A DNA stretch of 62,441 nt from a virus (taxonomy: Duplodnaviria; Caudoviricetes). Position numbers and translations under genes: made by a program. Shown here piece after piece: positions 2,277-44,749 of this stretch (the first letter of the stretch is position 1; each line of letters opens with the position of its first letter). Under the pieces are notes generated by a model that saw nothing but the letters and a program-made list of their open reading frames with translations, searched no databases and had not been told where the DNA came from. The DNA is taken from positions 1-62,441 of the IMG/VR virus record IMGVR_UViG_3300036853_000205, one strand, 5' to 3'.

Positions 2277-2288
2277 GTGGTGCTCCCT

Positions 2289-2507
2289 TTATCCGGTGAC
2301 TTGAATGAATTCGATTTGGCGGCGTTCGATGACGATCTCCCCGTCGACCGGGGCCGCTGCCGCGCCAGGCTCGTGCATGGTGACGTTGCGCAAAACGATG
2401 AGCGGGCCACGCTTTGCCCAGAAAATGCCGACGAAGGCACGGCTGGAGTGAAGATTGACAACGACCTTTTTGCGTAGCAGGGTGCGCCGAAAGTCGAGCC
2501 CGATCAC
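2289..2507 (-). CDS. Small conserved pre-portal protein (Sm-like beta fold likely)
   Basis: GTGA overlap with upstream stop; KVVVNL..AFVGI..PVDGEIVIERRQIEFIQV. Confidence 0.7.
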   Translation of the reverse strand: MIGLDFRRTLLRKKVVVNLHSSRAFVGIFWAKRGPLIVLRNVTMHEPGAAAAPVDGEIVIERRQIEFIQVTG

Positions 2508-2764
2508 TGGTCGGCGATCCCGATGTTGGCCGGGCGGTTGCCGCCCCATACGTGCGCCTGGCCGGTACCGCGTCGATGGTCGGAGGGGCACGGCAACTCT
2601 CCGTTTGCGGGAGGGTGACCGGTGAAGGCGACGCCCCAGAGCTTGCGCAGCAACTGCCAGCCGGGATTTTTGTCGCAGTACTCGCACTCGCCGGGGGCGT
2701 GCAGCACGTCCTGGTCACAGTGCGGGACCTTGCCCAGCTTTACGAAGTCCTCGAACGTCGTCAT
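2504..2764 (-). CDS. Hypothetical Cys/His-rich protein
   Basis: ATGA overlap with terminase stop; HCD..LHAPGECEYCD. Confidence 0.65.
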   Translation of the reverse strand: MTTFEDFVKLGKVPHCDQDVLHAPGECEYCDKNPGWQLLRKLWGVAFTGHPPANGELPCPSDHRRGTGQAHVWGGNRPANIGIADQ

Positions 2765-4485
2765 GACACGCCTTCGCCTTCGATCTCGTCGTTGGGGTCC
2801 TCGTACGCCGAGCGGCGCGGCTTGCCTGTGACCATTGCCCGCGAAAGGGCGGTGACGAGGGCGGCCACTCCGTCGATCTTGTCGACGGACCGTGCCCGGT
2901 CGGGTTTGACGTTGCCCGCCGGGTCCATCGCCACTGAGATGTTGTCGATCATCCAGCGCATGACCGGGTTGGCGCCGTGCCGTACCAACGGCTTGGCGGC
3001 GGTGCCTTGCAGCAACAGTCGGCTGAGTTGCTTCATGGGCGGGGACAGCGATGCGTATCCCTGCCGCACGGTGACCATCGGGGCGCCGTCGCTCTGCAAA
3101 TCGGTGACGAGTTGGGTGGCGTTCCACGGGTCGTAGGCCAGCTCGACCACTTTGAACGTGGTCAGGTCCTTGTTGATCTGTGCGCGCACATGGGCGTAGT
3201 CGGTGACCTCACCCGGGGTGAGCCGCAGGTAGCCGCGTTTCACCCAGCTCGTGGCGGCCCCGGCGGTGCGGTCGTCCAGCTTGCGCAGGTTCATCTCCGG
3301 CGTCCAGAAGCGCCACAGTGCGTCGTATCCGGCTGCGTCGTCGGGGAACAGCCAACACAGGGCGGTCAGGTCTGATGTAGACGCGAGGTCGAGCCCGCCG
3401 AACGCGTGCCGCCGCTTCAGCCGCGACTCGTCCACGAGACTCGCGTTGCGGTCCCAGACGGGCAGCTCGAAGTACTTGGTTTCCTGGCGGGTGCGCACGC
3501 CCAGGTGCAGGCGAAGGAACCGAGCCAGGTTCACCGGATTCTGTTGCGCCTTGGAGGCTTCGACCTTCAGGAAGGCCCGGGTGGGGCTGATGCCGTAACC
3601 GGGGTTGGCTTTCTTCCACGTCGACTCCAGGAACGGGTCATCGAGCGGGTCGGCTGCGAACACCACCCCGTACACACTGGGCTGCTTGATGCCGCCACGC
3701 GCCAGCCGCTCGATGTAGTCCCGTTTGTGGGCGTAGACGCTCTCCGGGCGACCATCGTCGGCGGTGGTGATGGTGATGATCAGTGGCTGAGACCTGGCTC
3801 CGGTGCCGGATTCAACCGCATCTACAACGGCGGATGTCTTATGGATGTGTAGCTCGTCAATGCCCGCGGCGTGAATGTTCGCGCCGTGCAACAGGTCGCC
3901 GAGGCTGGCAGCGACAGCGAAGTAGCTGCCGCTGGACTCCTGCACAATGCGCGACTGCAAGGGGCGGATGCCCGCCTGCTTCAGTTGCGGCGAGGACTGC
4001 GCGAGCTGCTTGGCGGGGTCGAAGCAGTGCCGGGCCTGGTCTTTGCTTCCCGCGACGGCCAGCACTTGCGCGCCGGCCTCGTCGTCTGCGAACGCCAGCA
4101 CGAGCAGCAATCCACTGATCAGAGTGGTCTTGCCCGCCTTGCGGGGCACGTCGATGTACACGGAGCGCACGATCCGCACGTAGACGCCGTCATCGTCGGG
4201 CGCCACCCACCCGAAAACCGGTGCGAGGATGTAGGCGACCTGCCAGGCGTCGGGCTTGAGGGGCCTGCCTGCCCACTTGCCCTGCGTGTGGCGCAGGCAC
4301 TCCAAACCAGCGATGACCTTGTCGACCCGGGATGCGTCAAAAACGGCACGGGGGTACCGGTTCGGCTCGGGCGTGCGTACGGCGGGCACGCACCAGTCGG
4401 GCACGACGTAGCCGCGCGACTCCAGATACCAATTGACCTCGGGAGACAGATCAGCCCGTGTGCGAGAACGGGTTCGTGTTGGCAT
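2761..4485 (-). CDS. terL: Terminase large subunit
   Basis: PRKAGKTT Walker A, IDELH Walker B, ITTA coupling motif, GLDLASTSD and KIDG nuclease motifs. Confidence 0.97.
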   Translation of the reverse strand: MPTRTRSRTRADLSPEVNWYLESRGYVVPDWCVPAVRTPEPNRYPRAVFDASRVDKVIAGLECLRHTQGKWAGRPLKPDAWQVAYILAPVFGWVAPDDDGVYVRIVRSVYIDVPRKAGKTTLISGLLLVLAFADDEAGAQVLAVAGSKDQARHCFDPAKQLAQSSPQLKQAGIRPLQSRIVQESSGSYFAVAASLGDLLHGANIHAAGIDELHIHKTSAVVDAVESGTGARSQPLIITITTADDGRPESVYAHKRDYIERLARGGIKQPSVYGVVFAADPLDDPFLESTWKKANPGYGISPTRAFLKVEASKAQQNPVNLARFLRLHLGVRTRQETKYFELPVWDRNASLVDESRLKRRHAFGGLDLASTSDLTALCWLFPDDAAGYDALWRFWTPEMNLRKLDDRTAGAATSWVKRGYLRLTPGEVTDYAHVRAQINKDLTTFKVVELAYDPWNATQLVTDLQSDGAPMVTVRQGYASLSPPMKQLSRLLLQGTAAKPLVRHGANPVMRWMIDNISVAMDPAGNVKPDRARSVDKIDGVAALVTALSRAMVTGKPRRSAYEDPNDEIEGEGVS

Positions 4486-4906
4486 CGGAACGGCCCTCCG
4501 CCACGATTCGGGTCCGCCCTGACGGCGTCAACCCGAACTCCTGCGCGAAGCCGCGCACCGTGTGGGCGGCGTCGCGCTGGATTTGGAGTGCGGGATTGCG
4601 AACCATGTTGCCGTGCATTCCCCGCACCAACACCGAGGTCTTGGCGAGGATTGCGCTTGCCTTCCGGTGCGCCACCACGGCTTCGCAGTAGCAGCGAAGG
4701 GTGTCACGGTCGGCGGACGTGGCGATCTTCATCACGAGCAGTTCGTTGAGTGTGTAGTCCCAGATTTCGCGGACGTCGTCGGCCATGTCGGGCGGCGGCT
4801 CGGGAGGAAAGTCGCGGGTGATCGGCTCACGCAGATTGACGTGGCTCGGTCGGCTCTCACCCCGCAGCAGCCGCAGTTTCAGGGGCACTGGCGGTGGTCC
4901 GGACAT
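4451..4906 (-). CDS. terS: Terminase small subunit, P27 family
   Basis: GPPPVP..LRGE N-term; RNPALQI..FAQEFGLTPSGR. Confidence 0.93.
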   Translation of the reverse strand: MSGPPPVPLKLRLLRGESRPSHVNLREPITRDFPPEPPPDMADDVREIWDYTLNELLVMKIATSADRDTLRCYCEAVVAHRKASAILAKTSVLVRGMHGNMVRNPALQIQRDAAHTVRGFAQEFGLTPSGRTRIVAEGRSDANTNPFSHTG

Positions 4907-5810
4907 CGGTCAAACCTCCTTGCCCCTCGCGGAGCCTCACAGCCCGTTCGTATTCCTCGTCGGGCGACCCGCACTGGGCGATTTTCGTTCGGAAGTAGCT
5001 GACGACGCTGATGCGTTCCGCGCCGCAGCTCTCACAGGGGGCGCGCACCCGCTCTCCGCAACCGCAGACGATGGTGGTGTTTCCGTGCCAGTCGTGGGCA
5101 TCCATCAGCAACAGGTCACCGTCGTGCATGTCCACGGCCACCCGATAGGCGGGAAACACCAGTTGTCCGCCGGTGTAGGGGCCGCGCCGCAGGCAGGCAA
5201 TGGTGGAGAACCCGGCGTCGAGATCGCCCCTGTCGGTGTGGACCCCCGTCGGGTAGGTGTTGTTGACGGTGACCGTGGAAAACGGGGTACCCGGCACGAT
5301 CCACGCCGCATCACTCACGGCGGCCTGCGCGGCCTGGTTGGCGTAGCGGTCGGGGACGTGCTCGGCCAGGTGCCCGGCCACAGCCCGCAGCAACGGGTGG
5401 AGCTGCTGCCAGTAAGGCAGATTGCGCGCGGTCCACGACGTCTGGCGACAGTAGCGCTGCTGTCCTAACGCATCCACCGCACCGACCACCATCGACGGGG
5501 TTTCGGCCGCATAGGAGCGGCCACGCCCCGTCGGGTCGAGACGCGGCGTTCCGCTGGCGGCGCCACGATTTTTGGTGACCATGCCGCGCAACGAGTGCAG
5601 CACGTCATAGGTGACAGGGTCGGCGACCTGCGCGGCGAGCGCACCCGGCAAGTACACGCACAGGGGGCGCCCGTCGGGTTTGATGAGGCGCGCCGGGCCG
5701 GTCAGCAACACGTCGAAGTCCGCCGCGCCGAGCACCTTACCGGCGAGGCTTTCGCGGATGGCGGAGTCAGCGACCCGGCTGCGTAGCCGAAGTTCGGTGT
5801 GAACCGTCAT
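4857..5810 (-). CDS. TET/JBP-family 2OG-Fe(II) 5-methylpyrimidine dioxygenase
   Basis: FSTVTVNNTYPTGVHTDRGD (HxD), GGQLVFP, LLMDAHDWHGNT (distal His), ERISVVSYFR (RxS); ATGA coupling at 5807-5810. Confidence 0.88.
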   Translation of the reverse strand: MTVHTELRLRSRVADSAIRESLAGKVLGAADFDVLLTGPARLIKPDGRPLCVYLPGALAAQVADPVTYDVLHSLRGMVTKNRGAASGTPRLDPTGRGRSYAAETPSMVVGAVDALGQQRYCRQTSWTARNLPYWQQLHPLLRAVAGHLAEHVPDRYANQAAQAAVSDAAWIVPGTPFSTVTVNNTYPTGVHTDRGDLDAGFSTIACLRRGPYTGGQLVFPAYRVAVDMHDGDLLLMDAHDWHGNTTIVCGCGERVRAPCESCGAERISVVSYFRTKIAQCGSPDEEYERAVRLREGQGGLTDVRTTASAPETAAAAG

Positions 5811-6367
5811 TGCAGTACCCGCAGCGGAAGCCGTGCCAGCGCCGGAAGCAGCTCCGTCAACCGCGCGACGTTGGCGGCGGGGTGGGCGGTGCCGTCGAGC
5901 TGGACCAGGCGGTGGCGGCCTACGGCGTGCTCGGCGAGCCTGGCCGCCTTGGTGGCGCGGCCCGTCCGCCACGACACCGACTGGGCGGAACCCCGGGAGG
6001 CGGCACGCCGGTCCAACTCATCGTCAGGCACGGTCAGATAGACCGCAGTGACTGTGTAGCCCGCGTTGACGCCCGCGTCGAGAAAGCCACTGTGGGCCAA
6101 CCGGTCACCTTCACCGAGCACCAACGCGGACGGCTGACCGGCAAGAAACGACTTGGCCAGGGGGGAGACGTTGAGGCCGAGGGCATCAGTGCCGGAGAAC
6201 GCGGCCCGGCGCTTGCCCAGTTCGATCCCGACGACATCGGCGCTGCGCGTGAGGAGGTCGTGGGCGAACGGCTTGGCCATCGGGTGGCGCCCACAGCCAC
6301 CGGTCAGTTCAGCCATGAGCGTCGACTTTCCGGCGGCGGGCGGCCCGAAGACGTAGACCAGGTTCAC
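5807..6367 (-). CDS. P-loop nucleotide kinase (base-modification type, Ploopntkinase3-like)
   Basis: GPPAAGKST; FSGTDAL, EGDRL, RGSAQS..GRATK motifs. Confidence 0.85.
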   Translation of the reverse strand: MNLVYVFGPPAAGKSTLMAELTGGCGRHPMAKPFAHDLLTRSADVVGIELGKRRAAFSGTDALGLNVSPLAKSFLAGQPSALVLGEGDRLAHSGFLDAGVNAGYTVTAVYLTVPDDELDRRAASRGSAQSVSWRTGRATKAARLAEHAVGRHRLVQLDGTAHPAANVARLTELLPALARLPLRVLQ

Positions 6368-7482
6368 GCCGCGACGTCTCTGCCGTCGATGATCGCCTGG
6401 CGGACGTGGGCGTCGGCCAGCACGTCAACGACCAGATGCACCCGATCCACGCCGGAACGGTTATCCACGGCGTGCGGCTTGCGGGCGTCGAGATACCACA
6501 TCGACCAGGCGGGCAGGTGCGCGTTGTACCGCTCACCCCGCAGATTCCACGCGGACATGGTGATGTCGGGATGGGTGACCAACGGGATGTGGAACCGCAC
6601 AATTTGCCGGTCACGGGTGCCTGCGGCGCGATCGGTGATGTCGGTGTGGCGCGAGAGGCTGCCACCCTTGCCGCCGCGACCCGCCATGCGTAGCAGGCGC
6701 ACCCGCTCCAGTTGCCCCCACCACTCCACACCGCGCACCAGCTCCACCGTCGCCGGGCACTTCGCGGCGAGCACGGTCCAGGCGCATCGGGTGTACTGCA
6801 CGGCCTCAGGGTGCGCCGTCCACCACGCCTTCGACATCTCGGCGGGTTTGATGCCCCAGGCGGGGTCGGCGGGGTTGAAGCCCCGCAGGCTTACCGCACC
6901 CCAGGAGCCGTCGGAATAGTACGGGTAGTCGTCGGTCCAACCACGGATATTCGTGGCCTCGGCAACGATCGCGGCGCGCTGCGTCGCGGTGACCGCCAGG
7001 GGCACGCGGACAAGGGTGGCGGAGTCAGCGGCGGGGTAACTGTGCCCGGAGCCAGCCCGACCCCAGCAGTTGACGATCTCTGATGCCGCCGACACGCGCA
7101 CTGCCGCGATCTCGCGGTTTTGCAGCCGCAACTGCCGGGTGATGTGGGTGTCTTCGGCATAGGCGAAAACGTAGTCGAAGGCCGCCAACGAGGGCAGCGT
7201 CACGCTCGGCAGGCACGCCAGGTGGGTGATGACGCGGGCACCGTCGCCGAGAACGTAGGCGCGGCCGGAGAAGTCCAGCCGAGTCGAGCTGCGGGTCAGC
7301 CGCCGCGACACCGCTGCCGCCCCTTGGCCCCACCAGTGCCACGTCCCGTGGGCCATGTGGTTGTCGATCTCGGCGGCAGTCGGTACGGCGAAGGCGCCGG
7401 CGGCGAAGTTCTTCGCGTAGGCCCCCAGGAACCGTGCGGCTTCGCGGCCGGTCGTCGGGGTCCTCAGGTCGACGGCGGTCAT
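6364..7482 (-). CDS. Two-domain protein: unknown (possibly degenerate GNAT-like) N-term + aspartyl/asparaginyl beta-hydroxylase-like 2OG-Fe domain
   Basis: RVRLLRM..LSRHTD..RFHIPLVTHP..WYLDARKPHAVDN..DRVHLVVD. Confidence 0.82.
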   Translation of the reverse strand: MTAVDLRTPTTGREAARFLGAYAKNFAAGAFAVPTAAEIDNHMAHGTWHWWGQGAAAVSRRLTRSSTRLDFSGRAYVLGDGARVITHLACLPSVTLPSLAAFDYVFAYAEDTHITRQLRLQNREIAAVRVSAASEIVNCWGRAGSGHSYPAADSATLVRVPLAVTATQRAAIVAEATNIRGWTDDYPYYSDGSWGAVSLRGFNPADPAWGIKPAEMSKAWWTAHPEAVQYTRCAWTVLAAKCPATVELVRGVEWWGQLERVRLLRMAGRGGKGGSLSRHTDITDRAAGTRDRQIVRFHIPLVTHPDITMSAWNLRGERYNAHLPAWSMWYLDARKPHAVDNRSGVDRVHLVVDVLADAHVRQAIIDGRDVAA

Positions 7483-8387
7483 GCGGCCCCCTCCATCACG
7501 GCGAGCTGTGGCGTCCGCACGATCCCGGTCTCGCGGTAGCAGCGCCCGAGTTTTTTGTCCGCGCCCGGAGGTACGTCACGCCACGGCGCGGGGACCGCCG
7601 AGCGGAACGCCTCGCGCAGCACAAGCTTGTCCATGAGTAGGGCCAGGCCCTCGATCTCTTCACGGATCATCGCCAGGTGCTTGCCGGGGTAGTACCGGCC
7701 CTTGCGCATGACGTTGAAATCGCAGATGACCGTCTCGAAGTCCCACCAGGACAGGGCCACCCCGTTGTCAGCGAGCATCGCTCGGCACTCGACGGCAGTG
7801 GCGTTGAGCCAATCCACGCTGGGCTGATCGTTGCCGTACAGACGTTCCAGCGACTCGCGGGGCCCGCTGGACTCCCACAGGAACGCGTGCGGAGTCTCCA
7901 CCGGCAGGCCGATGACCTTGGCCGTGAACTCAGCCCATTCGAACGCGGTCAGCCGCCCGACGCCCCAGACACGACGCAGGTAGGGCATCAGCGTCAGAAA
8001 AGCGTCAGCGGGGTCGGCGTCGGCGGGCACCGCTTCCCGCAGCCACAGCAACTGCCGCTGCCCGCCGAGCAGGCTCACGTACGAGTCGAGGTGCTGAAGA
8101 ACTTTGCCGCCGCGCAGGTTGCGGCGTTCACCCGAGCAGGGCAGCCGAGCCACGGCGGCACGGTCGACGTGTGGCCAGGCCACAGGTTCTGGGCAGCCGG
8201 CCAGCACGGTCATCGCGGAGCCGAGGTCGTCGAAGGCGTTGTAGAGCTTGACCGCCCAGAGCAGCCGTTCGGTGTCCCACCCGGCGACGGTGCGCAGCTC
8301 GGCGAGCACGGCCGCCCACGGTTCGATGTCGGCGGCGGCGACTTCGTAGCGGGCGAACGTCACCAGGTCGGCCAGCACAACATCCAT
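7479..8387 (-). CDS. Amino-acid:DNA transferase (aGPT-Pplase2-like, HhH glycosylase fold)
   Basis: DIEP, ERRNLR, HhH-like VWGVGRLTAFEWAE, SGPRESL, FETVICDF..GRYYPG; TGATG coupling at 8385-8389. Confidence 0.8.
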   Translation of the reverse strand: MDVVLADLVTFARYEVAAADIEPWAAVLAELRTVAGWDTERLLWAVKLYNAFDDLGSAMTVLAGCPEPVAWPHVDRAAVARLPCSGERRNLRGGKVLQHLDSYVSLLGGQRQLLWLREAVPADADPADAFLTLMPYLRRVWGVGRLTAFEWAEFTAKVIGLPVETPHAFLWESSGPRESLERLYGNDQPSVDWLNATAVECRAMLADNGVALSWWDFETVICDFNVMRKGRYYPGKHLAMIREEIEGLALLMDKLVLREAFRSAVPAPWRDVPPGADKKLGRCYRETGIVRTPQLAVMEGAA

Positions 8388-9235
8388 CAGGCGGCCACGT
8401 CCGCCGTCCATCCGGCGTACTTGGCCAGGTCGGCGGCGGCCGGGTCGTGTGGTGCGGCGTGCAGCACCGCACCCATCGTGCGCAGCCCGCGCAGCATTAC
8501 GTCGGATGCGCGCAGGTCGCCGTCACCCAGGGCGGTGCGGGCGGCGGCCACCAGGGCCACGGCTTCAGCGCGGTCGTCCTCGGAGTACACGAGGATCATT
8601 TCGGTGAAGCCGCCGCTTGCCGGGCCGATGCGCGGCTCGTAGGCGGCGATGCGGTCGGTACGCGCGGCGAGCTGTTCGGGGGTTTCGGCGTAGGCGGCGT
8701 CCGTCGCGGGCACGGCCACGGCCTGCTCCGGCTCGGGTAGCTCGGCGGCGGCCAGCAGGTCTTCCAGCTCTGACGGGGTCCACCCGGCCAGCTCCGCCAG
8801 GTCGAAGTCTTCGCCAGCGAGTGAGGTCAGCACGTCGGCCAGACCAGCGTCATCCCAGCCGCCCAGTTCGGAGTGCTTGTTGTCGGCGAGTAGGTACGCA
8901 TCGGCCTCAGCGTCGGATCGGCTGGCCCAGCCACGAACTACCGGCACCAGCCACCGTCCGGTCGCGTCGAGCTGCACACCGTCGGGTGGGGTCTGGCCCG
9001 CGTCGCGCATCAGCGCCAGCGTTTCGGCCCGGCCGTGACCCACGACCAGGCGGCCGGTGCGCTCGTCTCGCAGTACGGGGGCGGCGAAACCGAAGCGGTC
9101 CATGGAGGAGCGCAGCAGATCGAGCCGGTGTTTCTTCGGGTTGCGGGTGGCCGGGACGATCTCATCCAGCGGCATATAGATGATGTTGCGCGCGGGTGCC
9201 TGCTTCATATTGATGCCTATCGCTGATGGCTTCAT
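8387..9235 (-). CDS. ParB-like N-terminal domain protein
   Basis: PATRNPKKH..SMDRFGFAAPV..LVVGHGR..AYLLADNK..GGWD. Confidence 0.88.
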   Translation of the reverse strand: MKPSAIGINMKQAPARNIIYMPLDEIVPATRNPKKHRLDLLRSSMDRFGFAAPVLRDERTGRLVVGHGRAETLALMRDAGQTPPDGVQLDATGRWLVPVVRGWASRSDAEADAYLLADNKHSELGGWDDAGLADVLTSLAGEDFDLAELAGWTPSELEDLLAAAELPEPEQAVAVPATDAAYAETPEQLAARTDRIAAYEPRIGPASGGFTEMILVYSEDDRAEAVALVAAARTALGDGDLRASDVMLRGLRTMGAVLHAAPHDPAAADLAKYAGWTADVAA

Positions 9236-12207: not shown

Positions 12208-15200
12208 TCATGCCGAGTCGGCCCAGGCGAACGCGGGCGCGCTGGGTTCGGCTTCGATGCTCACGCCGAACAGTTCGGTCTTCATGCATCGCACCAGTTC
12301 GGCGGTCGCCACCTCGGCGTCGGCCGCAGGCACGAACACGTCCAGTTCGTCATGCACGGGCAGTAGCACGCAGGCACCCCAACGGGTCTCGCGCCACCGA
12401 ACCAGGGCATCGACTAGCAGCTCCCTTGCGGTCCCCTGGATGCAGAAGTTCGGGCCCTTGTGGGGGAACTCGCGGGGTAGGTGGATGACGCGTCCGGCGT
12501 AGGTGGCGAACTGGGTCTGGCCGCGCTGAACCGCTTCCCGGATCGACTGGGACCAGGCCGTCAGTTGCGGCGCAAGCGCGTCCAGCGCATCCACCACCCG
12601 CTGCATCTCAGCGTGCGACACGCCCAACTGCGCGGCCAGGGCGGGCACCCCACCGCCGTAGATCCGCCCGAACACACCGCGCTTGACCCGGTAGCGCTGG
12701 GCCTTGTTGGCGTCCGGCCCGTACACCATGCGGGCGATCTCCCAGTGCAGGTCGCGTCCGTCGAGCAGGAATTGCAGCAGGTTGCGGTCCTGGGACAGGG
12801 CGGCGGCCACCCGGATTTCTACGCTGGAGAAGTCCGCCCCGATCATGAGCATTTCCGGGTCCGCGGTCAGGCACGCCCGCATTCCGCCTTCGCGGGGCAG
12901 TTGCTGGAGGTTGGGCCGGACGCAGGACATGCGGCCGGTGTCAGTGCCGAGCGTGTAGACCGTGGGTCGGGCACGCCCGTCGCCGCGTTCGCACAGTTGC
13001 CGGTACGGGTCCAGGAACAGCCCAAGAGCGGTGTCGGCGTGCCGGTAGTCGAGCACCGCCCCCACGAGGACGCCGAGCGGCCCTTCAGCGGCCCGTAGCG
13101 GCTCCAGAACGCCCGCAGCCACTGAGGGGCGCCCCGTCTTCGTTGTCGGCAACGTCGCGCCGAGCTGGGTGGCTGCCTGGCCCACCTGCTGGTCGGAACC
13201 GGGGTTGTCGATCCCGAACGTGCGCACCCGGACGGCGGCGTCGGCCCGGCCCGCGATGTGCAGCTCGCTCAGCCGGGCGATGTGCTCGGCGTCGAGCCGA
13301 ACGCCTTCATGCGCTACTCGGGCAGTCATGCGCTGCGCCAGCCGCTCCCGCCAGTACACCTTGGGGGCTGGCTGGGGCAGGACTTCGGCGAGGGCAGCGG
13401 TGTCGAGCACGTCCGACGCCGCGTAGCGCAGCATCGTCGCCGAGTGGGTGTCGACCTGTGCCCAGCCGGACCGCTCAACCGGGGTGTCGGCCTTGGTCTT
13501 TTCGAGCCAACGGCCCGCCTTGAACAGCGCTGCCCGACTGGCGTCGGCAGCCGGAGCGACCGCGCGCACGCCGAGCACGGCCGCCGCCAACTTCTTCAGA
13601 CCGGGATCGGAGCCGGTGCTGGCGGGGTCGGCGAGCTTGGCGGGGATGACGGTGTCGCGCATCCGCAGCCATGCCGCGTCGGCGTCGATCAGTCCCGCGT
13701 GGGCCAGCGGCACCAGGTCGGCGGTGGCCGAGTGCGCGTGCAACGTCGGCGCCTCGTCCAGCAGGGAGCTGATCAGCGCGGCCTGCTCGATGGGGTCGAA
13801 CACCACGGCGGCTGTGGCGTCGCCGAGCTGCACTGACCGCAGAGCGTAATCACCGTGGCCCACCGGGTAGCCCGTGGTCTCCACGTCCACGGTCAGCGCA
13901 CCCGAGCGCTCCACGGCACCCCGGACCACGGCTGCGGCCTGCTCCAGACTCAGCGCCATGATCGTGCCGTCGCGGTCGACCACGGCGGGCAGCGCCACCG
14001 TCGCGCCAGCCGCCGCAAGGATCGACGCCGAGCGTGCCTCAGCCTTGAGCTGCGCGCGGGCCTCGGTTTTGGTGATCTTCGATGTGCTGGCACGTAGCGC
14101 CACGTCGGCGAGGGTGGTCTGTGACGGGGTGACCCGTGACGGGACCTGTTCCCCTTTATCTGTATTTATATAGTGTGTGTTATTTGTATGTTGTTGATGA
14201 TTGTTGTCTAAACTATTCAAACTAGTCACTGAACAAGAAGAAACAGGGTCTGACCTGGTGTTATCGTCCGTGACGGGCGTGGTCGAAACCAGTCGCTCAA
14301 CGCGTCCCACTCCAGTCACCGATGCGTCAGACGTTTCGACCTCCGGACTCGTTCGTCCTAGGAAGGCGGCCGGGGTGGGTGTCGTCGGCATGGACCCTTC
14401 GGTCCAACCCAGGATCGAGAGCGGTCTGACCTTTCCGTTTCGCGTGTGCTGCGCCGGAAAACCCATCTCCGTCAGGGTCCGACCGAAGGAAGTCACTGAT
14501 GGTATGACCGTTTTCCGGTAGATGGGATTGTCCTGATGCCACTGCGCGAACGCGTTGTAAAGGGTGCGGGCGGCGGTGCCCGGCTCGGTCGGGATGGTGC
14601 GGTTTTCGACCCACTCTCGGACCGGGTTCTGGTCCTCCGCGAGCGTCTGCGCCAGGCCGCGCACAGCCGCCGGGGCCACTGCGTTCGACGCTGAGTCCCG
14701 GTCGGCCAGATAGCCCGCCGTCTCCCGCATCAGGGCGGCCAGGATGCCTGGTGCCTCCTCGGCCAACGCAACGCCGAGCAGCGCGAGCCGGGCTGGTCGA
14801 ACGTCACTCTCCGTAGCGTTGCAGGGGATCAGGCGCATCCGGGCGCGTAGGGCGGGGTCGGTCAGGTGGGGCTCGTCGTTCGTCGTCATGACCAGGGTGT
14901 GACTCGGCGGGAACGTCACCGAGTTGGCGCGCATCGGGCGCCCGGTCAGCGACCCTCCGCCGGTGAGCTGCTTCAGGCGTTCGGTGGCGTCGTGGCCGCG
15001 CCGGGGCCCCTCGTCGATGAACGAGAACCGGCGCCCTTTCAGGTCCCAGATAATCTCCGGGTGGCTGGTGTCCTGCGCGCTGAGCAGTCTCGGGCTGGCG
15101 GCGTGCGCATAGGAGCCCAGCACCTCAACCAGCATCTCGATCAGCGAGGTCTTGCCCGAGCGCTCCGTGCCGTAGAGCACCGGCAGGGCTGCGTCCGCGT

Positions 15201-16842
15201 GGCCTGTGAGGCCGATGGCCAGCACCCGCAGCGCCCACGCGCGCACCTCGGGGTCGGGAAGCACCGCGGCCACGAACGCATCCCATCGTGGCGTCGCGCA
15301 GTTCGGGTCCGGGGCGCACAGGGCAGTACGGAGGTGCGGGGTGCCCGGGTCGACCCACCGTGCCAGGGTCGGCACGTCGCCACTCGCCCGCAGATCCCAT
15401 GGAGCTCCCCCGGCCCAAAGAATCTCCGGGTTGGCGTCGAGTGTTGCGCTGCGCAGGGCGGCCGGATGGTCAGAGCTGACGATGGCGCGCAGCTTGCGGG
15501 CGACCTTGCTCGCGCCCGCCGACGACATGAACTGTGCCCGCCGCACGGCCCGCCAGTGCGCTTCTGTCCGGTCGCCCAGCTCCTTCGGTACCGGTGTCTC
15601 CCCGATCGGCATCAACTCCGCCAGCACCGCGATTGCCCACTCGGACAGGTCGTCGGCGTGCTCCCGCCACACGTCCCGGCCGCGCACGATCCACAGCTTG
15701 GCGTCGCTGGCGAACCGCAGCGCCGGATACATCCGGTAGGCGACAGCCTTGGCCAGGCCCTGATCGCTGGAGTCCAGCGCCGGATCGAACGGCTCCCCGC
15801 CCAGCACCGCATACACTGACCACGGAGGCTCTGCCGGAGGTGCTTCGTCACCCGGCGGAGCCTCCCCCTGCCCGGCGATGGCCTCGTGCTCGTGCTGGTG
15901 AGCCTGCTCCGCCGTGAACACGTGGAACGGCTGGACCGCCCCGTCGTCCAGACCCTGTTGCACCCAGAGCTGGTCATCGGCATCGGGGCAGCCCCACACC
16001 TCACCGATGGCCTCTTCCAGCCGCTTGCGGGCCACCCCTTCATCGAGGTATCCGCCGCCGACATACCCGCCCAGGGTCAGCGCCGCGCGCAGCAGCACCG
16101 TTCGGAAGCCGATCCCGCCGTCGCTGGTCCACGTCGACACCTCGGCGAGCTTGGCGGAGATGGCCTTCTCGGCAGCCGGCGCGGACTGCGGCTCGCGGCA
16201 GGCGACGAACGACTGCCACCAGTCAGGCCCGCCGGCCGAGCGCATACCCGTCCCCGCCGCACGGACCTCCCCGATGCGCGCCGCGAGCGCTGACCCGCTG
16301 GCGTCTTGCCCTGTGCGCCAGGCGTAGTCGCCGAATCCGCCGGGGTCGGGTACCCGCTGCCACTGGTAGGCGACCGGTGCCCGCGTCACAGCCGACGCCC
16401 GCACGGTCGGCGCGATGAAGGCGAACCCACGGCCGCTGCCGTCCGGCAGGCCGCCCTTGACGTCGATGCCGGGCCAGAGGTTGTCGCGGCTGCCCACGCC
16501 GAGCGACGCGATGAACAGGTGCCAGCCGCCGGACGGCGTGGCCGCACAGGCGTACACCGTGGGCATCAGCCCTTCCAGCGCACCGAGGTCAGCGCCGTTG
16601 CGCGGGTCGATGTCGATCAGATCCAGACCGCAGCCCATCACCGCGCACAGCGCGAGTCCCGGCACCCACAGGTCGACGACGCCCGGGTCAGGCTCGGTGC
16701 GTTCCCAGTGCTTCGGCGGCCGGAATCCGGTCTTCGCGTCCGGGTCGGGGTGCGCCAGGAACAGCGGAACGCCCGCAGCGACCAGGGTCCGGGCCACGTC
16801 CAGGTCGGCGCGCTGCTGTTCTGTCAGGTCAGGATTAGTCAT
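12208..16842 (-). CDS. Fused replicase: bifunctional Prim-Pol + D5-like SF3 helicase + 3'-5' exonuclease/family A DNA polymerase
   Basis: DLIDIDPRNG/TPSGGWH; GTERSGKTS, FIDE, MTTN; DVETTG, YAASD; TGRMS..PNLQQLP, ADFSSVEIR, RYRVKRGVFGRIYG, VHDEL in one ORF. Confidence 0.9.
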   Translation of the reverse strand: MTNPDLTEQQRADLDVARTLVAAGVPLFLAHPDPDAKTGFRPPKHWERTEPDPGVVDLWVPGLALCAVMGCGLDLIDIDPRNGADLGALEGLMPTVYACAATPSGGWHLFIASLGVGSRDNLWPGIDVKGGLPDGSGRGFAFIAPTVRASAVTRAPVAYQWQRVPDPGGFGDYAWRTGQDASGSALAARIGEVRAAGTGMRSAGGPDWWQSFVACREPQSAPAAEKAISAKLAEVSTWTSDGGIGFRTVLLRAALTLGGYVGGGYLDEGVARKRLEEAIGEVWGCPDADDQLWVQQGLDDGAVQPFHVFTAEQAHQHEHEAIAGQGEAPPGDEAPPAEPPWSVYAVLGGEPFDPALDSSDQGLAKAVAYRMYPALRFASDAKLWIVRGRDVWREHADDLSEWAIAVLAELMPIGETPVPKELGDRTEAHWRAVRRAQFMSSAGASKVARKLRAIVSSDHPAALRSATLDANPEILWAGGAPWDLRASGDVPTLARWVDPGTPHLRTALCAPDPNCATPRWDAFVAAVLPDPEVRAWALRVLAIGLTGHADAALPVLYGTERSGKTSLIEMLVEVLGSYAHAASPRLLSAQDTSHPEIIWDLKGRRFSFIDEGPRRGHDATERLKQLTGGGSLTGRPMRANSVTFPPSHTLVMTTNDEPHLTDPALRARMRLIPCNATESDVRPARLALLGVALAEEAPGILAALMRETAGYLADRDSASNAVAPAAVRGLAQTLAEDQNPVREWVENRTIPTEPGTAARTLYNAFAQWHQDNPIYRKTVIPSVTSFGRTLTEMGFPAQHTRNGKVRPLSILGWTEGSMPTTPTPAAFLGRTSPEVETSDASVTGVGRVERLVSTTPVTDDNTRSDPVSSCSVTSLNSLDNNHQQHTNNTHYINTDKGEQVPSRVTPSQTTLADVALRASTSKITKTEARAQLKAEARSASILAAAGATVALPAVVDRDGTIMALSLEQAAAVVRGAVERSGALTVDVETTGYPVGHGDYALRSVQLGDATAAVVFDPIEQAALISSLLDEAPTLHAHSATADLVPLAHAGLIDADAAWLRMRDTVIPAKLADPASTGSDPGLKKLAAAVLGVRAVAPAADASRAALFKAGRWLEKTKADTPVERSGWAQVDTHSATMLRYAASDVLDTAALAEVLPQPAPKVYWRERLAQRMTARVAHEGVRLDAEHIARLSELHIAGRADAAVRVRTFGIDNPGSDQQVGQAATQLGATLPTTKTGRPSVAAGVLEPLRAAEGPLGVLVGAVLDYRHADTALGLFLDPYRQLCERGDGRARPTVYTLGTDTGRMSCVRPNLQQLPREGGMRACLTADPEMLMIGADFSSVEIRVAAALSQDRNLLQFLLDGRDLHWEIARMVYGPDANKAQRYRVKRGVFGRIYGGGVPALAAQLGVSHAEMQRVVDALDALAPQLTAWSQSIREAVQRGQTQFATYAGRVIHLPREFPHKGPNFCIQGTARELLVDALVRWRETRWGACVLLPVHDELDVFVPAADAEVATAELVRCMKTELFGVSIEAEPSAPAFAWADSA
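14120..14320. other. Candidate replication origin inside replicase gene
   Basis: Strongly AT-rich tract ~14155-14245 in a GC-rich genome, flanked by repeated GTGAC/GTCAC pentamers. Confidence 0.6.
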
Positions 16843-17047
16843 GCTGCACGCACCGTTCGCCATTTCCGCCAAGGTGCTCGATCTGAAACGACCGGACCTG
16901 ATCAAGCGGTATCCAGGTGCGCGGCACCCCTCGGCCGATCACCAGGCAGCGACTCGGTGCGTCAATCTTCCAGCCGCCGCCCTCGGCACTAACGGGGTAG
17001 TACATGTGCGTGTGGTCGTGATAGAGGATTACCAGTTGCAGCCTCAT
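16835..17047 (-). CDS. Hypothetical protein
   Basis: Overlap-coupled ORF in replication operon. Confidence 0.6.
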   Translation of the reverse strand: MRLQLVILYHDHTHMYYPVSAEGGGWKIDAPSRCLVIGRGVPRTWIPLDQVRSFQIEHLGGNGERCVQHD

Positions 17048-17531
17048 GTTGCACGCGCCTTTGCCGAGAGTGGGTCGGGCAGACCGCAGTCACGGACGGC
17101 GGCGAACAGGGCGTGTCGGGCGGCAGCGCGAGCGTGCGGCATGGCCCTGGTGATGTCGTACAGGCCAGCGGCCGTGAGCCGTTTGTCGCTCGCCCACGGC
17201 ATCACCTCCGCCGCGCAGCGCTGCACCACCGACACTCCGGGCAGTTCACGGCCGAGCGCTGTCACCGCGCCTACCATGTCCCGGGTGGTGGCTGCTGCGC
17301 GCGGCGTGGACAAGCGGCTAGAGCGCATGGCGACGATGAACCGCTCGACGGCCAGCACCACCGGGCCGCACTGATCGCCGATCGTCAGCAGCGTTTGGAC
17401 GAGCCGCAGGACTGAGCCAGGGTCGCACTGCAAGACGGTGTGCAGCCTCTCTTGCCCGCCGCCGCCGGTCAGCAACATCACCACGCCAGGGATGGGCCCC
17501 GGGTCAACGCCAACGACGCGAAACGGCGAAG

Positions 17532-17535
<4 letters not shown>
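17044..17535 (-). CDS. RuvC-like Holliday junction resolvase
   Basis: VVGVDPG, LAVERF, HARAAARHA. Confidence 0.78.
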
Positions 17536-17648
<113 letters not shown>

Positions 17649-17722
17649 CATCCAGCTCACCTTTTGCCTCCGGTTCTCGTTGTTGTTGTCATTTCGCGGA
17701 TTCAGCACTGCCAAGCAAAAGG

Positions 17723-18145
17723 TCAGCCCCGCACGGTCACCACATCGGGGCAGTCGCATGTGGACAACGGCCCGTCTGCGCTCGGGTCGTAGCCGAGGCA
17801 GCGGAACGGAGTAGCTGGATCGGTGGGGTCTAAGTTCAGCGTGTCGTCTAGTCGGTGCCAGTCATGCGGATGACGACAGCGCAGGCACATGGGCAAACGG
17901 GAGCACTCGATCGGGTCGAGCGGTGGCCGGGCGTTGGCGAATACCAAAAGGGACAGTGCGTGCTCGTACTCCACTACGGCGTCGAGCGGGTCGACCCACC
18001 GATGCCGGTCAACCCACGCGCGGGCGATGTTCTTTTCCGCTTCAGTCGGCTCGCGGTGGGGTGGATTGCCCAGCGTGAAAATCCAGTCGCTGAGGTCGGA
18101 GCCTTCCGGCCGCACGATCGCTGCATACTCCGGCGCTTCATTCAT
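17723..18145 (-). CDS. Hypothetical protein with C-terminal Cys/His finger
   Basis: CLRCRHPHDWH..C..CDCP. Confidence 0.6.
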   Translation of the reverse strand: MNEAPEYAAIVRPEGSDLSDWIFTLGNPPHREPTEAEKNIARAWVDRHRWVDPLDAVVEYEHALSLLVFANARPPLDPIECSRLPMCLRCRHPHDWHRLDDTLNLDPTDPATPFRCLGYDPSADGPLSTCDCPDVVTVRG

Positions 18146-19938
18146 GCCGCTGCCCTCTTTCTACGTAGGTCGCGGACTTCCGCGCCGCCCAGCAACTCGG
18201 CGACAACGCGTGGGTCCTGAACGAGATCGGCGAGCTGTCCGGCGCGCTCGCGCAGCACGGCACGCACACGGGTGTCGATTGTTTTCGACGCGACGATGTC
18301 AATGACTTCGATGGATTCGTGCCCCTCGGCGCCGATGCGGTGCAAGCGGTCCTCGGCCTGCATCGCTTCCACCAAGCTCCACGGACGTTGGAGAAACACG
18401 GCGGTGCGTGCCGCGGTGAGGGTCAATCCGACTCCGCCGGCGCCCGTGGTGACGCAGACCATGTCGAGGTCTCCGCGCTGGAACGTCTCCCGTACTGCTG
18501 TGCGCTCCTTGGGGGTCTGCCCGCCGACGATGTAGCCGACCTTCAACCCCACTGCGGCTGCCGCGTTCCCTGCCAGCACCATCAACTGGCGCGACGGCGC
18601 GAACGCGACCACAGGTTGACCAGGCCGCTCCTCCAGCACCTCCAGCAGAGCATCGACCTTCCAGCTCGGCGCCTTCAGAGTGACCTTCTGGTGCTCCCGT
18701 TCGATGGGCAGACCGGTCATCGGGTCCGCCACGACCTCGGTGGTGATCTCGATGTCGGCGGCGGCACTGGCGAGCTGGGCAAGCCGGGTCAGTTGGGCGA
18801 GCACCGACATGACCGACAGCTCACCGCCGTCGGGTAGCTGCGCGAGCATGTCTTCTTCCAACCCGTCATACGCTTCGCGGTAGCCGGGTGGAAGGTCCAC
18901 GGTCCGCACGGTGTAGACCTTGGGCGGCAGCTCGGCGAGCACGTCCGCTTTGGCGACTCGGCGGTGACGCCCGAGCAGGGTCGTACGAAATTCGGGCTCG
19001 GCGTGCTGGTTGAGGCCGAGCGCGGTGGTGCTGTAGTCGCCGGGACGGTTGAGGCAGTACCGCTGCACCCAGCGTTCCCGCGACGGCCACGCCCCCGGCT
19101 CCAACGCGACCAGGCTCGGCCACAGGTCGGCCGGGCTGTGCGTGATCGGAGTGCCGGACAGGCCGATGAACGTGGAGGCACCACCCGCCAGCCGCCGCAC
19201 CGCCCGAGACTGCGCGCTGGCCTGGTGCTTGAGCATGTGCACCTCGTCCGCGACGACGACGGCCGCGCGCAGTCCGATCAACGGCGACGTGCGGGGGTTG
19301 GTGTCGGGCGCGTCGCGGCGGGCGGTGCCGTAGCTGGTGACGTACACGTCGGCGGTACCAGCAAGGGCTCGCCGCTGCGCGGGACTGCCCCGCCAGGCGC
19401 GCACTCTCCAATGCGGTGCCCATGCTCGGAATTCGTCAATCCACGGGTCGACCACCGACGATGGGGCGATGACGACGGTGGGGTGGACGCGATGCCCGGC
19501 GTGCGCACGTTCCACCAGCCCGAGAACCGTTTCCATGCTCTTGCCGGTGCCGGGTTCATCGAAGATCAGCATGGACCCGGCTTCCCGGATCATGCATGCT
19601 GCTTCAACCTGGTAGCGGCGCGGCACCTTGCCCGGCGGCGGCGGCACGGCGAGCGCGAGCGTGGCAGGGTTGGCGGTGCGACGGCGGACCTGGTCAGCGA
19701 TCCAGGCGGCGAGGCCAGGGCCCGGCCGCCAGTACCGGCCGAATGCCGCCGACAACTGCACCACCCCGGGCCAGGAGGCGGGCATCTCAAGGGCTCCGGG
19801 TGGGGTGGTCGGTTTGCAGTGTGGTGTCAGGACTTGCAGGAGGCGGCTGGCGTCGGCGACTTCCCAGTCCGGGCCGACCGCCATGAGAACGATGTTGCAG
19901 CGGTTGGTGGTCAGCTCCCCCACGACGATCGCTGGCAC
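18142..19938 (-). CDS. SNF2-type SF2 helicase
   Basis: DEPGTGKS, ADEVH, LSGTP, GGVGLTLT, QAEDRLHRIG. Confidence 0.92.
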   Translation of the reverse strand: MPAIVVGELTTNRCNIVLMAVGPDWEVADASRLLQVLTPHCKPTTPPGALEMPASWPGVVQLSAAFGRYWRPGPGLAAWIADQVRRRTANPATLALAVPPPPGKVPRRYQVEAACMIREAGSMLIFDEPGTGKSMETVLGLVERAHAGHRVHPTVVIAPSSVVDPWIDEFRAWAPHWRVRAWRGSPAQRRALAGTADVYVTSYGTARRDAPDTNPRTSPLIGLRAAVVVADEVHMLKHQASAQSRAVRRLAGGASTFIGLSGTPITHSPADLWPSLVALEPGAWPSRERWVQRYCLNRPGDYSTTALGLNQHAEPEFRTTLLGRHRRVAKADVLAELPPKVYTVRTVDLPPGYREAYDGLEEDMLAQLPDGGELSVMSVLAQLTRLAQLASAAADIEITTEVVADPMTGLPIEREHQKVTLKAPSWKVDALLEVLEERPGQPVVAFAPSRQLMVLAGNAAAAVGLKVGYIVGGQTPKERTAVRETFQRGDLDMVCVTTGAGGVGLTLTAARTAVFLQRPWSLVEAMQAEDRLHRIGAEGHESIEVIDIVASKTIDTRVRAVLRERAGQLADLVQDPRVVAELLGGAEVRDLRRKRAAA

Positions 19939-28541: not shown

Positions 28542-29738
28542 ATGGTCGACAGCTTCGGTGCCACACTGCGAGCCTTACGTCAGCAGAACGAACTCAGCTT
28601 GGAAGCCCTCGCCGAGCGCACCACCTTCAGCGCGGGCTACCTCGGCAACATCGAGACGGGCGAACGCGCACCCACCCTGGGCGTAGCCGCAGCCTGTGAC
28701 GACGTGTTCGGCTGCGCCCCCTTGCTGGCAACCCTGCACAGCATCGAGCGAGGAGACCCCATGCTGCGACGGGCGTTACTCGGCGGTACTTTCGCCGCCA
28801 CATCCACTGCGCTGCTCGCCACCGTGGACGGCACCGCGGCATTGGCCGCCGTCCTGCAATCGAGCCTCCACGACGCGATCGAGGCGCCCACCGACTGGGA
28901 TGCCCTGGCCGCCAGCTTCGCCCGCCGTCACGTGCTGGCCCCGTCCCCCGCGTTCGGCGTCGAGCTGGCCGCACAGATCGCCGTTGCGCAACATCGCGTC
29001 ACCGCCGGGGATCGTGATGCTGCCCGGGGCGCCGCGCTGCTCGCGCTCACATACGGGCTGTGGATCGCCGATACCGGGCGGGTGCCCACCGCGCACGGCC
29101 TGTACGCCACCGCTGCTGCCCTCGCTGACCGCTCCGGCGACCCCGCTACCCGCGCCCTGGTCCGGGCCCGCGCCGCGAACCGGGGCATCTACGAGGGCTG
29201 GACCGCTGACCGGGCACAGGCCACCGCCGACGAAGCCCTCGCAATCTCCACCACCGGCACGGCCGCGCTGGAAGCGCACGCTGCCCGGGTACACCTACAC
29301 GCGCTGACCGGCAACCTGTCGGCGGGGCGGGCAGCCGTGGCACAGATGCGGGCGGCGGCTGACTCGCTGCCCGAAGCCGGCGGACCCACGGCGCATCAGC
29401 GCGTCGCCTCGTTCCACGCCTACCTGGAGTGCCGCGCGGGCAGCCTCACAGACGCCCAACGGGCCTTCGAGCAGGCCGAGCGGGATCTTCGGCAGGTGCC
29501 GCTGTGGCTGGCGGACGCCACGATCTACATGGGTCGAGCCCTGGTCGCGGCGGGTGACGTCACCGGCGGGGCACAACTCACCCTGGACGCCGTGCAGCAC
29601 CTCCCGTTCTCAACGCGCATCCTCGGTATCGGGGTACGTGACGTGCTCTACGCTGCCGGGCGTCGGCGCAGCGACGTCCTAGACGTGCTGCGCGGCTACG
29701 CCAGCCCCGGCCCGGCCCCTTGGGAGACCCTGACATGA
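28542..29738 (+). CDS. XRE-family HTH regulator with helical-repeat C-terminus
   Basis: FGATLRALR..LSLEALA..FSAGYLGNIETGERAP; TTA codons at 28575 and 28776. Confidence 0.88.
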   Translation: MVDSFGATLRALRQQNELSLEALAERTTFSAGYLGNIETGERAPTLGVAAACDDVFGCAPLLATLHSIERGDPMLRRALLGGTFAATSTALLATVDGTAALAAVLQSSLHDAIEAPTDWDALAASFARRHVLAPSPAFGVELAAQIAVAQHRVTAGDRDAARGAALLALTYGLWIADTGRVPTAHGLYATAAALADRSGDPATRALVRARAANRGIYEGWTADRAQATADEALAISTTGTAALEAHAARVHLHALTGNLSAGRAAVAQMRAAADSLPEAGGPTAHQRVASFHAYLECRAGSLTDAQRAFEQAERDLRQVPLWLADATIYMGRALVAAGDVTGGAQLTLDAVQHLPFSTRILGIGVRDVLYAAGRRRSDVLDVLRGYASPGPAPWETLT

Positions 29739-30208: not shown

Positions 30209-30283
30209 AGCGCGCCTGTGGATTTCCTTTCACTTGCCTTTTGCAACTCTAACCAACCCGAGTAAAAAAGGAGCGTCACCGTC

Positions 30284-40945: not shown

Positions 40946-40970
40946 TGCGCATCCTCTCGTTGGGGTTGAC

Positions 40971-41948: not shown

Positions 41949-41969
41949 GATGATCCCTTTCGAAGGGTT

Positions 41970-42527: not shown

Positions 42528-42591
42528 GGCGCTCCTCTCGCTTGTGGTGGGTGGGGGCGTAACCGGGTGGGGCGTCAGTCGTTGTCCCGGC

Positions 42592-44730: not shown

Positions 44731-44749
44731 GTGGCTCCCTCATGGAAAG

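Follow-up and report, generated by a model that had tools for sequence, protein, structure and literature searches.

How much of a DNA replication apparatus can a single phage gene encode, and what might be the role of the DNA that joins its parts? The question is raised by a gene in a 62,441-nucleotide virus record (IMGVR_UViG_3300036853_000205; Duplodnaviria, Caudoviricetes), which was analyzed over its full length and is referred to below as the window. An initial annotation of the window, made from the letters alone, described one long open reading frame (ORF) as a single-polypeptide replisome with a primase-polymerase (Prim-Pol), a superfamily 3 (SF3) helicase and a proofreading family A DNA polymerase (PolA) in one chain. 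We find that this ORF is real and shared by many relatives, and that its most unusual feature, absent from that annotation, is origin-like DNA in the linker between the primase-helicase half and the exonuclease-polymerase half. Taken as a whole, the locus is best explained as a gene for a one-chain replicase whose linker DNA would serve as the replication origin, a reading to which we give a probability of roughly 0.6.

The replicase is encoded by one uninterrupted frame

12208..16842, minus strand: fused replicase gene (1544 codons from the ATG at 16842; stop codon at 12208-12210)

The same stop-free frame extends upstream to a TTG at 16905, giving a longer form of 1565 amino acids (aa) at 12208..16905 (P0001), whose numbering is used here for all domains and motifs. 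The ATG form (1544 aa) is 100% identical to a database gene call (P0002) and would weigh ~168 kDa by its residue count, and homologues start at about aa 22 of P0001, that is, at the ATG. The G+C content at third codon positions (GC3) of the gene is 0.84, like that of the other genes of the window. A Logan contig from sequencing run X1 (8332 nt, depth 28.8) covers positions 13500-15000 with zero differences and zero gaps; since X1 is probably the source sample, this contig counts as an independent assembly and not as an independent sample. A second run, X2, yielded scattered short pieces only, and the public runs listed for the sequence included none of RNA. The ORF of about 1544 aa in the initial annotation, given there without its strand, is thus confirmed as a genuine single-ORF gene, and the stretch 14100-14400, at which that annotation had considered a hidden stop or frameshift, lies inside a second assembly that spans 13500-15000 without stop, frameshift or difference. 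The single polypeptide is very probably the replicase of the phage.

Four domain families with intact motifs

16306..16842, minus strand: catalytic domain of an archaeo-eukaryotic primase (AEP) type Prim-Pol (aa 22-200; DxD motif D98/D100, H129, D148)
15871..16305, minus strand: helical bundle after the primase domain (aa 201-345; all-helical in the model over residues 184-323)
14401..15240, minus strand: D5/P4-type SF3 helicase core and C-terminal domain (aa 556-835)
13384..13914, minus strand: 3'-5' proofreading exonuclease (aa 998-1174)
12211..13353, minus strand: family A polymerase domain (aa 1185-1565)

The Prim-Pol assignment had to be indirect because the N-terminal domain of the window's protein (aa 22-345) has no Pfam match even at E 10, and so does not itself reach the cut-off of PF09250. 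Two relatives (52% and 49% identical) do exceed that cut-off, PF09250 is matched by 18 of 30 aligned N-terminal domains, and hhalign aligned the profile of the window's subtype with the PF09250-positive relatives at 96.2% probability (E 2.3e-9, 257 columns). An AlphaFold model of this part (pLDDT 81.6) had pRN1 prim-pol as its top four fold matches in the PDB (9aam, 3m1m, 1ro0, 1rni; E 2.6e-5 to 4.4e-4), followed by RepB', CAPP and NrS-1, and the matches to full-length pRN1 primase and RepB' extend over ~350 columns. The fold search was used in place of a sequence-profile search of this domain against the PDB, which returned spurious matches only (a lectin and a ribosomal protein). The motif residues D98, D100, H129 and D148 are kept in 120, 120, 104 and 116 of 120 aligned rows, respectively. 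By homology, motifs and predicted fold, the N-terminal ~320 residues thus correspond to an AEP Prim-Pol followed by a helix bundle.

The helicase carries Walker A (GTERSGKTS, 579-587), Walker B (FSFIDE, 627-632) and motif C (VMTTN, 672-676) of SF3, with G579, G584, K585 and D631-E632 kept in 120/120 rows and N676 in 117/120. Matches over curated cut-offs place a P4/D5-type SF3 NTPase region at aa 525-793 (Pfam DUF5906, PF19263, aa 577-681, 33.7 bits vs. a cut-off of 27.6; NCBIfam TIGR01613, the C-terminal region of P4-family primases, 119.8 vs. 108.7), and the PHROG matches are to 'DNA primase' over aa 36-819 and to 'DNA polymerase' over aa 999-1563. The family profile matches African swine fever virus (ASFV) C962R at 1e-13 and poxvirus D5/E5 at 1e-4. 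A model of the helicase with its C-terminal domain (pLDDT 91.3) was matched by Foldseek to the ASFV PrimPol (8iqi; TM-score 0.75 over 311 columns), to monkeypox virus (MPXV) E5 and to the primase-helicase of the Staphylococcus aureus pathogenicity island (SaPI) SaPI5 (7ola; E 1.8e-8, 269/283 columns). In sequence and modeled fold, this part belongs to the D5/P4-type SF3 helicases, with helicase activity predicted. In the model, the last ~100 residues of this half form helices and then a beta-hairpin, and a look-alike search of the ESM Atlas with aa 690-840 returned Pox_D5-type DNA-binding domains (score 0.96, 22/30 matches). This fold resemblance and the language-model look-alike provide a lead that DNA may be bound by the ~130 C-terminal residues of the helicase half.

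The exonuclease has the motifs ExoI (DVET, 1007-1010), ExoII (HSATAD, 1058-1063) and ExoIII (YAASD, 1161-1165), and D1007, E1009, D1063, Y1161 and D1165 are kept in 119/120 rows. With its match to DNA_pol_A_exo1 (PF01612, aa 998-1174; 26.8 bits vs. a cut-off of 23.6), it falls by sequence into the DnaQ-like 3'-5' exonucleases of PolA and is predicted to be active. Family A polymerases carry the motifs A (DxSxxE), B (RxxxKxxxFGxxYG) and C (HDE), which read here ADFSSVEIR, RYRVKRGVFGRIYG (aa 1404-1417 of P0001) and VHDE. Residues D1358, R1404, K1408, F1412, Y1416 and H1518-D-E are kept in 118-119 of 120 rows, and the match to Pfam DNA_pol_A (PF00476, aa 1234-1544; E 2.9e-46, 158.6 bits vs. a cut-off of 34.3) identifies the sequence as that of a family A DNA polymerase. 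For all four predicted activities, between 104 and 120 of the 120 aligned family members retain the catalytic residues. The domain content of the initial annotation (Prim-Pol, D5-like SF3 helicase, exonuclease and PolA) therefore stands with all motifs intact. Its motif B and the Phe at the 762-equivalent site are likewise present, but this Phe is nothing special, being the canonical state of Pol I-like enzymes (PMC10201439). Its description of the polymerase as compact does not hold: 582 residues of the exonuclease-polymerase part (606 aa) align, end to end, with the 607-aa phage D29 gp44 (29% identity), so the size is ordinary.

The linker contains an origin-like element

14011..14400, minus strand: variable linker (aa 836-965; translated, poorly conserved protein)
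14154..14253, no strand: A+T-rich patch in the linker, a likely DNA-unwinding element
14119..14322, no strand: whole origin-like element, the A+T patch with flanking short repeats

As a protein segment the linker is poorly conserved (column identity 0.27-0.45 vs. 0.6-0.8 in the domains) and its length ranges from 95 to 356 aa in relatives. As DNA it is extreme. The 100 nt at 14154-14253 have a G+C content of 0.31, the lowest of all 62,441 bases; the next lowest 100-nt value is 0.47, and the mean is 0.673 (standard deviation 0.05). GC3 falls to 0.29 in the patch vs. 0.84 for the gene, and across the patch the frame of the gene is open while the other five frames contain stops. The patch holds a TTA leucine codon (14209-14211; codon 899 of P0001), whereas 14 other large genes, with 7324 codons between them, have none; in Streptomyces-type hosts this codon is rare and regulated.

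Short repeats lie on both sides of the patch. Read along the gene strand, the degenerate copies GTGACTGG (14319-14312) and GCGACTGG (14296-14289) are followed by CCCGTCAC (14277-14270), the box CCAGGTCAGACC (14258-14247), GTGACTAG (14229-14222), the A+T patch and GGGGAA, and then, on the far side, by CCCGTCAC (14143-14136), GGGTCAC and CCCGTCAC (14128-14121). The CCCGTCAC copies and the degenerate inverse GTGAC(T/G)(G/A)G have opposite senses on the two sides of the patch, and there are three exact copies of CCGTCAC in the element. Judged from the letters, this is the layout of a SaPI-like iteron origin, with an A+T-rich center, at least two opposed repeats per side (GTGACTGG, GCGACTGG and GTGACTAG on one, two copies of CCCGTCAC plus GGGTCAC on the other, the copies being degenerate) and a position directly 3' of the helicase-coding part. 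In the patch, Tandem Repeats Finder reported only one 9-nt repeat (2.1 copies).

The linkers of relatives have the same architecture, and the order of elements in them matches that of the window, more clearly (alignment A3 and repeat maps). Of 55 fused relatives, 37 have their locus-wide G+C minimum (over 8-14 kb) in the linker, vs. 3.0 expected by chance. An 8-mer enriched at least 10-fold was found in 34/55 linkers vs. 1/108 control segments of equal length from the same ORFs, and at least six exact copies of an 8-mer in 32/55 linkers vs. 0/108 control segments, the arrays holding 6-14 exact copies. In each of these 32 loci the repeats occur in both orientations, and in 25 every one of the three codon phases is represented, indicating that they are DNA elements that get translated and not peptide repeats. 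Their cores vary among relatives (ACCCTCCA, ACCCGCCA, CCCGTCAC, AACTGTCC and others), as expected of iterons that co-vary with a binding protein. From these features we judge, with odds of about two in three, that the translated, origin-like linker is the phage's replication origin.

Fused and split forms among relatives

A protein search over 5.8 billion clustered proteins showed how far the fusion extends. Among the matches listed, 118 of 119 non-self clusters are 1527-2038 aa long with PolA present (44-74% identity), including NCBI proteins of Pseudonocardia, Actinoplanes, Prauserella and Labedaea, and 64 of the best 150 representatives at 50% identity have at least 1300 aa. Fetching with the polymerase part gave 78 IMG/VR loci, of which 55 are fused in one stop-free frame, 12 are split, 7 are cut by a contig end and 4 have other or odd fusions. 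In species genomes 10/18 loci are fused (Labedaea, Micromonospora, Haloactinopolyspora, Nocardioides, Jatrophihabitans and a Mycobacterium metagenome-assembled genome, MAG), mostly in large chromosomal contigs, which points to prophages. Among 50,697 cultured-phage records, none of 4194 matching records covers 80% of the query, and the 40 listed all have primase/helicase and DNA polymerase I as separate adjoining genes. The fusion is thus frequent among soil metagenomes and actinobacterial prophages, and cultured-phage records are the only ones to lack it. The homologue survey proposed with the initial annotation accordingly recovers both forms, the fused one in 55 of the 78 IMG/VR loci, and calling the addition of PolA rare was an overstatement, given the 118 fused clusters and precedents published in 2016 and 2023.

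On a tree of the PolA part, the fused/split label changes 24 times when all database forms are used, and 8 times when only the 17 split forms from contigs of at least 20 kb are kept. Many 'split' entries in the database stem from contigs of 2-5 kb and probably represent truncated fused genes, which inflates the count of 24. Stand-alone polymerases of ~630 aa, 50-74% identical, start just before a conserved LPAxV motif. PolA of the window's subfamily is also fused to other modules, namely to a DUF3854, Toprim-like part (locus L021, 3349-7800) and to Prim-Pol with AAA_25, a RecA-type helicase and not SF3 (locus L036, 3511-7839), or stands alone beside DnaB and DnaG, a TrwC relaxase, or divergently oriented Prim-Pol helicases. 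One such locus (L086), a 60.9-kb contig of a Pseudonocardiaceae MAG, encodes a 1417-aa TrwC relaxase-helicase and then a stand-alone polymerase (850-5100 and 5653-7821), which suggests a conjugative or plasmid-like element instead of a phage. In several relatives (P0091, P0027, P0115, P0071, P0080) the polymerase part is split by inserts of ~230-350 residues, and inserts of the same kind are seen in loci L063, L066, L067 and L071; the window's gene has none. Since these inserts carry LAGLIDADG (PF14528) or HNH_3 (PF13392) in precomputed Pfam lists, they are probably inteins.

A model for the locus and its alternatives

In the model that we favor, the N-terminal half would be a self-loading initiator-helicase of the pRN1 ORF904, poxvirus D5 or SaPI5 PriRep kind, made up of an AEP Prim-Pol with its helix bundle, a hexameric SF3 helicase and a C-terminal helix-and-hairpin domain, and a variable linker of ~130 residues would join it to a D29-like proofreading family A polymerase. 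The origin would be the A+T-rich unwinding stretch with its opposed short repeats, directly 3' of the helicase-coding part and within the initiator gene. The C-terminal domain of the helicase half would bind the repeats, hexamers formed to its two sides would melt the A+T patch, the Prim-Pol would lay primers on the unwound strands, and the tethered PolA would extend and proofread them.

Several observations weigh against the linker as an origin. The repeats of the window are enriched only 5.0-fold, vs. 2.4 and 2.1 in control segments of its own gene. Genome-wide, CCGTCAC occurs 23 times vs. 23.06 expected and ACCCGTCAC (at most two mismatches) 312 times vs. 327 expected, so that it is the local clustering alone of the repeats, and not their abundance, that stands out. 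A scan of 13800-14600 for promoters and terminators returned 0 and 0, and the single-strand DNA folding of 14110-14330 is unremarkable (z 0.24), so this is no origin of the hairpin type. The Pfam model of the Pox_D5 DNA-binding domain matched 1/38 relatives (E 0.044). In 18/55 relatives the linker does not hold the locus-wide G+C minimum, and since the loci are related to one another, the counts of 37, 34 and 32 among 55 are not independent events. Finally, the repeat class changes 15-18 times on the tree of every protein segment, so no segment is singled out as a candidate repeat-binding domain.

An alternative that accepts the fusion holds that the A+T repeat patch is something other than an origin, namely a recombination joint left by module swapping, a binding array for a repressor or partition protein, or a run of rare codons that slows the ribosome between the two halves. 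At least three N-terminal modules (Prim-Pol with SF3, the DUF3854/Toprim-like part, Prim-Pol with AAA_25) occur attached to this PolA subfamily, which also stands alone beside DnaB and DnaG, TrwC or divergent Prim-Pol genes, suggesting that the junction is a site of module shuffling; the patch has the only TTA found and a low GC3; a ParB-like protein is encoded in the window; and the repeat type follows no domain of the replicase. A joint or a relaxed linker would, however, drift toward the composition of intergenic DNA, where the next-lowest patches have a G+C of 0.43-0.47, and not to 0.25-0.31, nor would it maintain arrays of 6-14 exact inverted copies whose order about the patch is fixed. 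The arrangement moreover fits the description of a helicase-loading origin given for SaPIs (PMC9371898), and the ParB-like gene sits in a DNA-modification cluster. We regard this alternative as unlikely.

It is also conceivable that the gene makes a polyprotein or two products, with proteolysis in the linker or an internal start releasing separate halves, so that a single-chain replisome would not exist. The stand-alone polymerases that begin just before LPAxV and the repeated changes between fused and split forms suggest that the halves can work unlinked, and the linker is long and unconserved. Against this, many of the split proteins are probably truncated, as noted above, and downstream of the patch the window lacks an in-frame start codon equipped with a ribosome-binding site: GTC comes after the GGGGAA box, and an in-frame GTG, without such a site, is reached only 45 nt later. 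No promoter-like site was found either. The frame stays open over A+T-rich DNA that is closed in the five other frames, and it does so in all 55 fused linkers, which argues for selection on read-through. This possibility appears to us less likely still. That two neighboring genes were merged by an assembly or sequencing error is hardly credible, because, although the record is a metagenome assembly and in cultured actinophages two adjoining genes, in the same order, encode primase/helicase and DNA polymerase I, the same fusion occurs in 118 clusters (JGI, ENA, Logan and NCBI isolate genomes) and the linker was reproduced by a second assembler without a difference.

Returning to the linker as an origin, a stronger form of this reading, tentative and on balance doubtful, is that the 4.6-kb gene amounts to a one-gene replicon, being initiator, helicase, primase, nuclease and polymerase together with its own inseparable origin. 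If so, expression would be tied to firing by the transcription and translation that pass through the origin, a role that transcription has at ori-lambda, and the rare A/T-ending codons, TTA among them, would pause the ribosome just when the helicase half has its DNA-binding end exposed, favoring loading in cis on the encoding molecule. With host single-strand DNA-binding protein, ligase and primer removal, the gene could then replicate any circle that carries it in high-G+C Gram-positive hosts.

The more modest form would already point to a concrete candidate origin in a large set of actinophages that are uncultured or known as prophages; to our knowledge, although we made no search for this, no origin has been mapped in them. 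It would also offer a reading of why the halves are fused in some relatives and split in others, the joint being an origin under constraint at the level of DNA and not of protein. Should the full-length chain be active, it would be a candidate single-enzyme system for primer-independent, proofread DNA synthesis and a compact orthogonal replicon for Streptomyces-type hosts.

Genome and surroundings of the replicase gene

16838..17047, minus strand: 70-codon ORF (frame 16835-17047) whose 3' end lies a few bases into the start of the replicase gene
18142..19938, minus strand: SNF2-type superfamily 2 (SF2) helicase, two genes upstream of the replicase and in the same replication module

The virus record, a metagenome assembly, has direct terminal repeats and is rated 100% complete. 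It encodes a portal, large and small terminase, protease, major head protein, tape measure and serine integrase, nearly all on the minus strand. The terminal repeats, serine integrase, siphovirus-type structural genes and G+C content of 0.67 identify the window as a complete temperate, siphovirus-like phage of a high-G+C soil actinobacterium. A near-identity DNA search of phages gave no match to the window, among plasmid records there was no close relative (0/583 cover 80%), and no phage tRNA genes were found. The 70-codon ORF has no family match; its overlap makes translational coupling to the replicase gene possible.

Four adjoining minus-strand genes (5807-9235) form a thymidine hypermodification-like cluster with a P-loop nucleotide kinase 3 (PF18751, 118 bits), an Asp/Arg-hydroxylase-like dioxygenase (PF05118), an amino acid:DNA transferase (PF18724, 43.2 bits vs. 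a cut-off of 26.2) and the ParB-like protein (phrog_620). We take families of the PF18751, PF05118 and PF18724 type to be tied to hypermodified thymidine. No dUMP hydroxymethylase was found among the window ORFs scanned. The phage DNA may contain modified bases, which the phage polymerase would have to copy. On the strand opposite to almost all other genes, a 398-aa HTH_31 protein (28542-29738, plus strand) and an S-adenosyl methyltransferase (PF04672, 332 bits; 30385-31182, plus strand) are encoded in what is probably an immunity or moron region, and the stretch between these two genes contains the patch that ranks second-lowest in G+C genome-wide (30201-30300, 0.47). A 105-nt unit is repeated three times (58% matches; 57287-57603) within a 1018-aa ORF (55549-58605) that has no PHROG match.

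Comparison with known systems

One-chain fusions of this general kind have been known since 2016. Kazlauskas, Krupovic and Venclovas (2016; PMC4889955) describe a primase, SF3 helicase and PolA in one chain in Pas55 of the Actinoplanes phage phiAsp2, with a DnaG-type primase, and SF3, AEP and a family B polymerase (PolB) in one chain in gp55 of Lactococcus phage 1706. AEP-PolA fusions in an Aquificae-like cluster were noted in 2023 by Czernecki et al. (PMC10201439), whose Table 1 gives an N-terminal AEP fusion in ~7% of the bacterial PolA cluster #8 'Hot Spring 1', and where D29-like polymerases are given as having 'no known partners'. We found no paper describing an AEP, SF3, exonuclease and PolA fusion, members of which may be listed in the supplementary tables of PMC4889955 and PMC10201439.

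The closest of these in setting is Pas55 (NC_005885), which, like the window's protein, is one polypeptide with primase, SF3 helicase and PolA from a temperate-type actinophage. The order Pas53-Pas54-Pas55 is also that of the window, an SF2 helicase, a small ORF and the fused replicase; at 17044-19938 the window is syntenic with 40778-47551 of the phiAsp2 locus (L079; SF2/SNF2 helicase, ~200-aa ORF, fused replicase). Pas55 differs in its primase part, which is DUF3854/Toprim-like (DnaG-type in the paper), and the window has no DUF3854. BLASTP aligns only the last 258 residues of Pas55 with the window's protein (30% identity), which does not make the latter a Pas55-type protein; by sequence, the two fusions are analogous, parallel constructions and not orthologues. 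The relative at L021 joins a Pas55-like DUF3854 N-terminal module to a PolA of the window's subfamily (62% identical to alignment A1). The HelPrimPolB proteins (the phage 1706 gp55 group; PMC4889955, PMC7544198) are described as likewise combining SF3, AEP and a replicative polymerase in one chain, but the polymerase is of family B and the order of domains in the name differs (helicase, primase, PolB).

The apicoplast protein Prex also has primase, helicase and proofreading PolA in one ORF, but its primase is of the Toprim type and its helicase DnaB-like. The window's protein has no Toprim, DnaB_C or AAA_25 match and its helicase is SF3, which sets it apart from Prex. The parallel with Prex drawn in the initial annotation holds only in the conceptual sense in which it was meant, and the PDB sequence matches of the polymerase are better to Taq and Klenow (1e-32) than to Prex (2e-15). 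For both parts of the N-terminal half, the best structural matches are the proteins of pRN1, ASFV and poxviruses: pRN1 ORF904, ASFV C962R and poxvirus D5/E5 have, like the window's protein, a Prim-Pol with a helix bundle and then a D5-type SF3 helicase. Unlike it, they have no fused polymerase and belong to archaeal plasmids or eukaryotic viruses.

For the linker, the nearest counterparts are origins next to or inside initiator genes. In SaPIs, the origin is described as lying directly downstream of rep, with 6-12 iterons that flank an A+T-rich center and are recognized by Rep, a self-loading helicase, through a winged helix of its C-terminal domain (PMC9371898). SaPI5 PriRep5 (7ola) is an AEP primase with a self-loading SF3 helicase and a DNA-binding C-terminal domain, a make-up that the window's protein would share, and its origin, in which inverted iterons flank the A+T-rich center, is placed directly 3' of the helicase-coding part, as the origin-like element is here. 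The SaPI origin is untranslated, unlike the window's linker, and no polymerase is attached, that of the host being borrowed. In phage lambda, as in the window, an iteron origin lies within the initiator's own gene, O, and is translated, and ori-lambda has an A+T-rich part; unlike the window's protein, lambda O is not a helicase, primase or polymerase, and the families are unrelated. The AEP, SF3, exonuclease and PolA protein is a further combination in a series already noted, after DnaG-type primase with SF3 and PolA, and SF3 with AEP and PolB, and what it adds to that series is the origin-like DNA of its translated linker.

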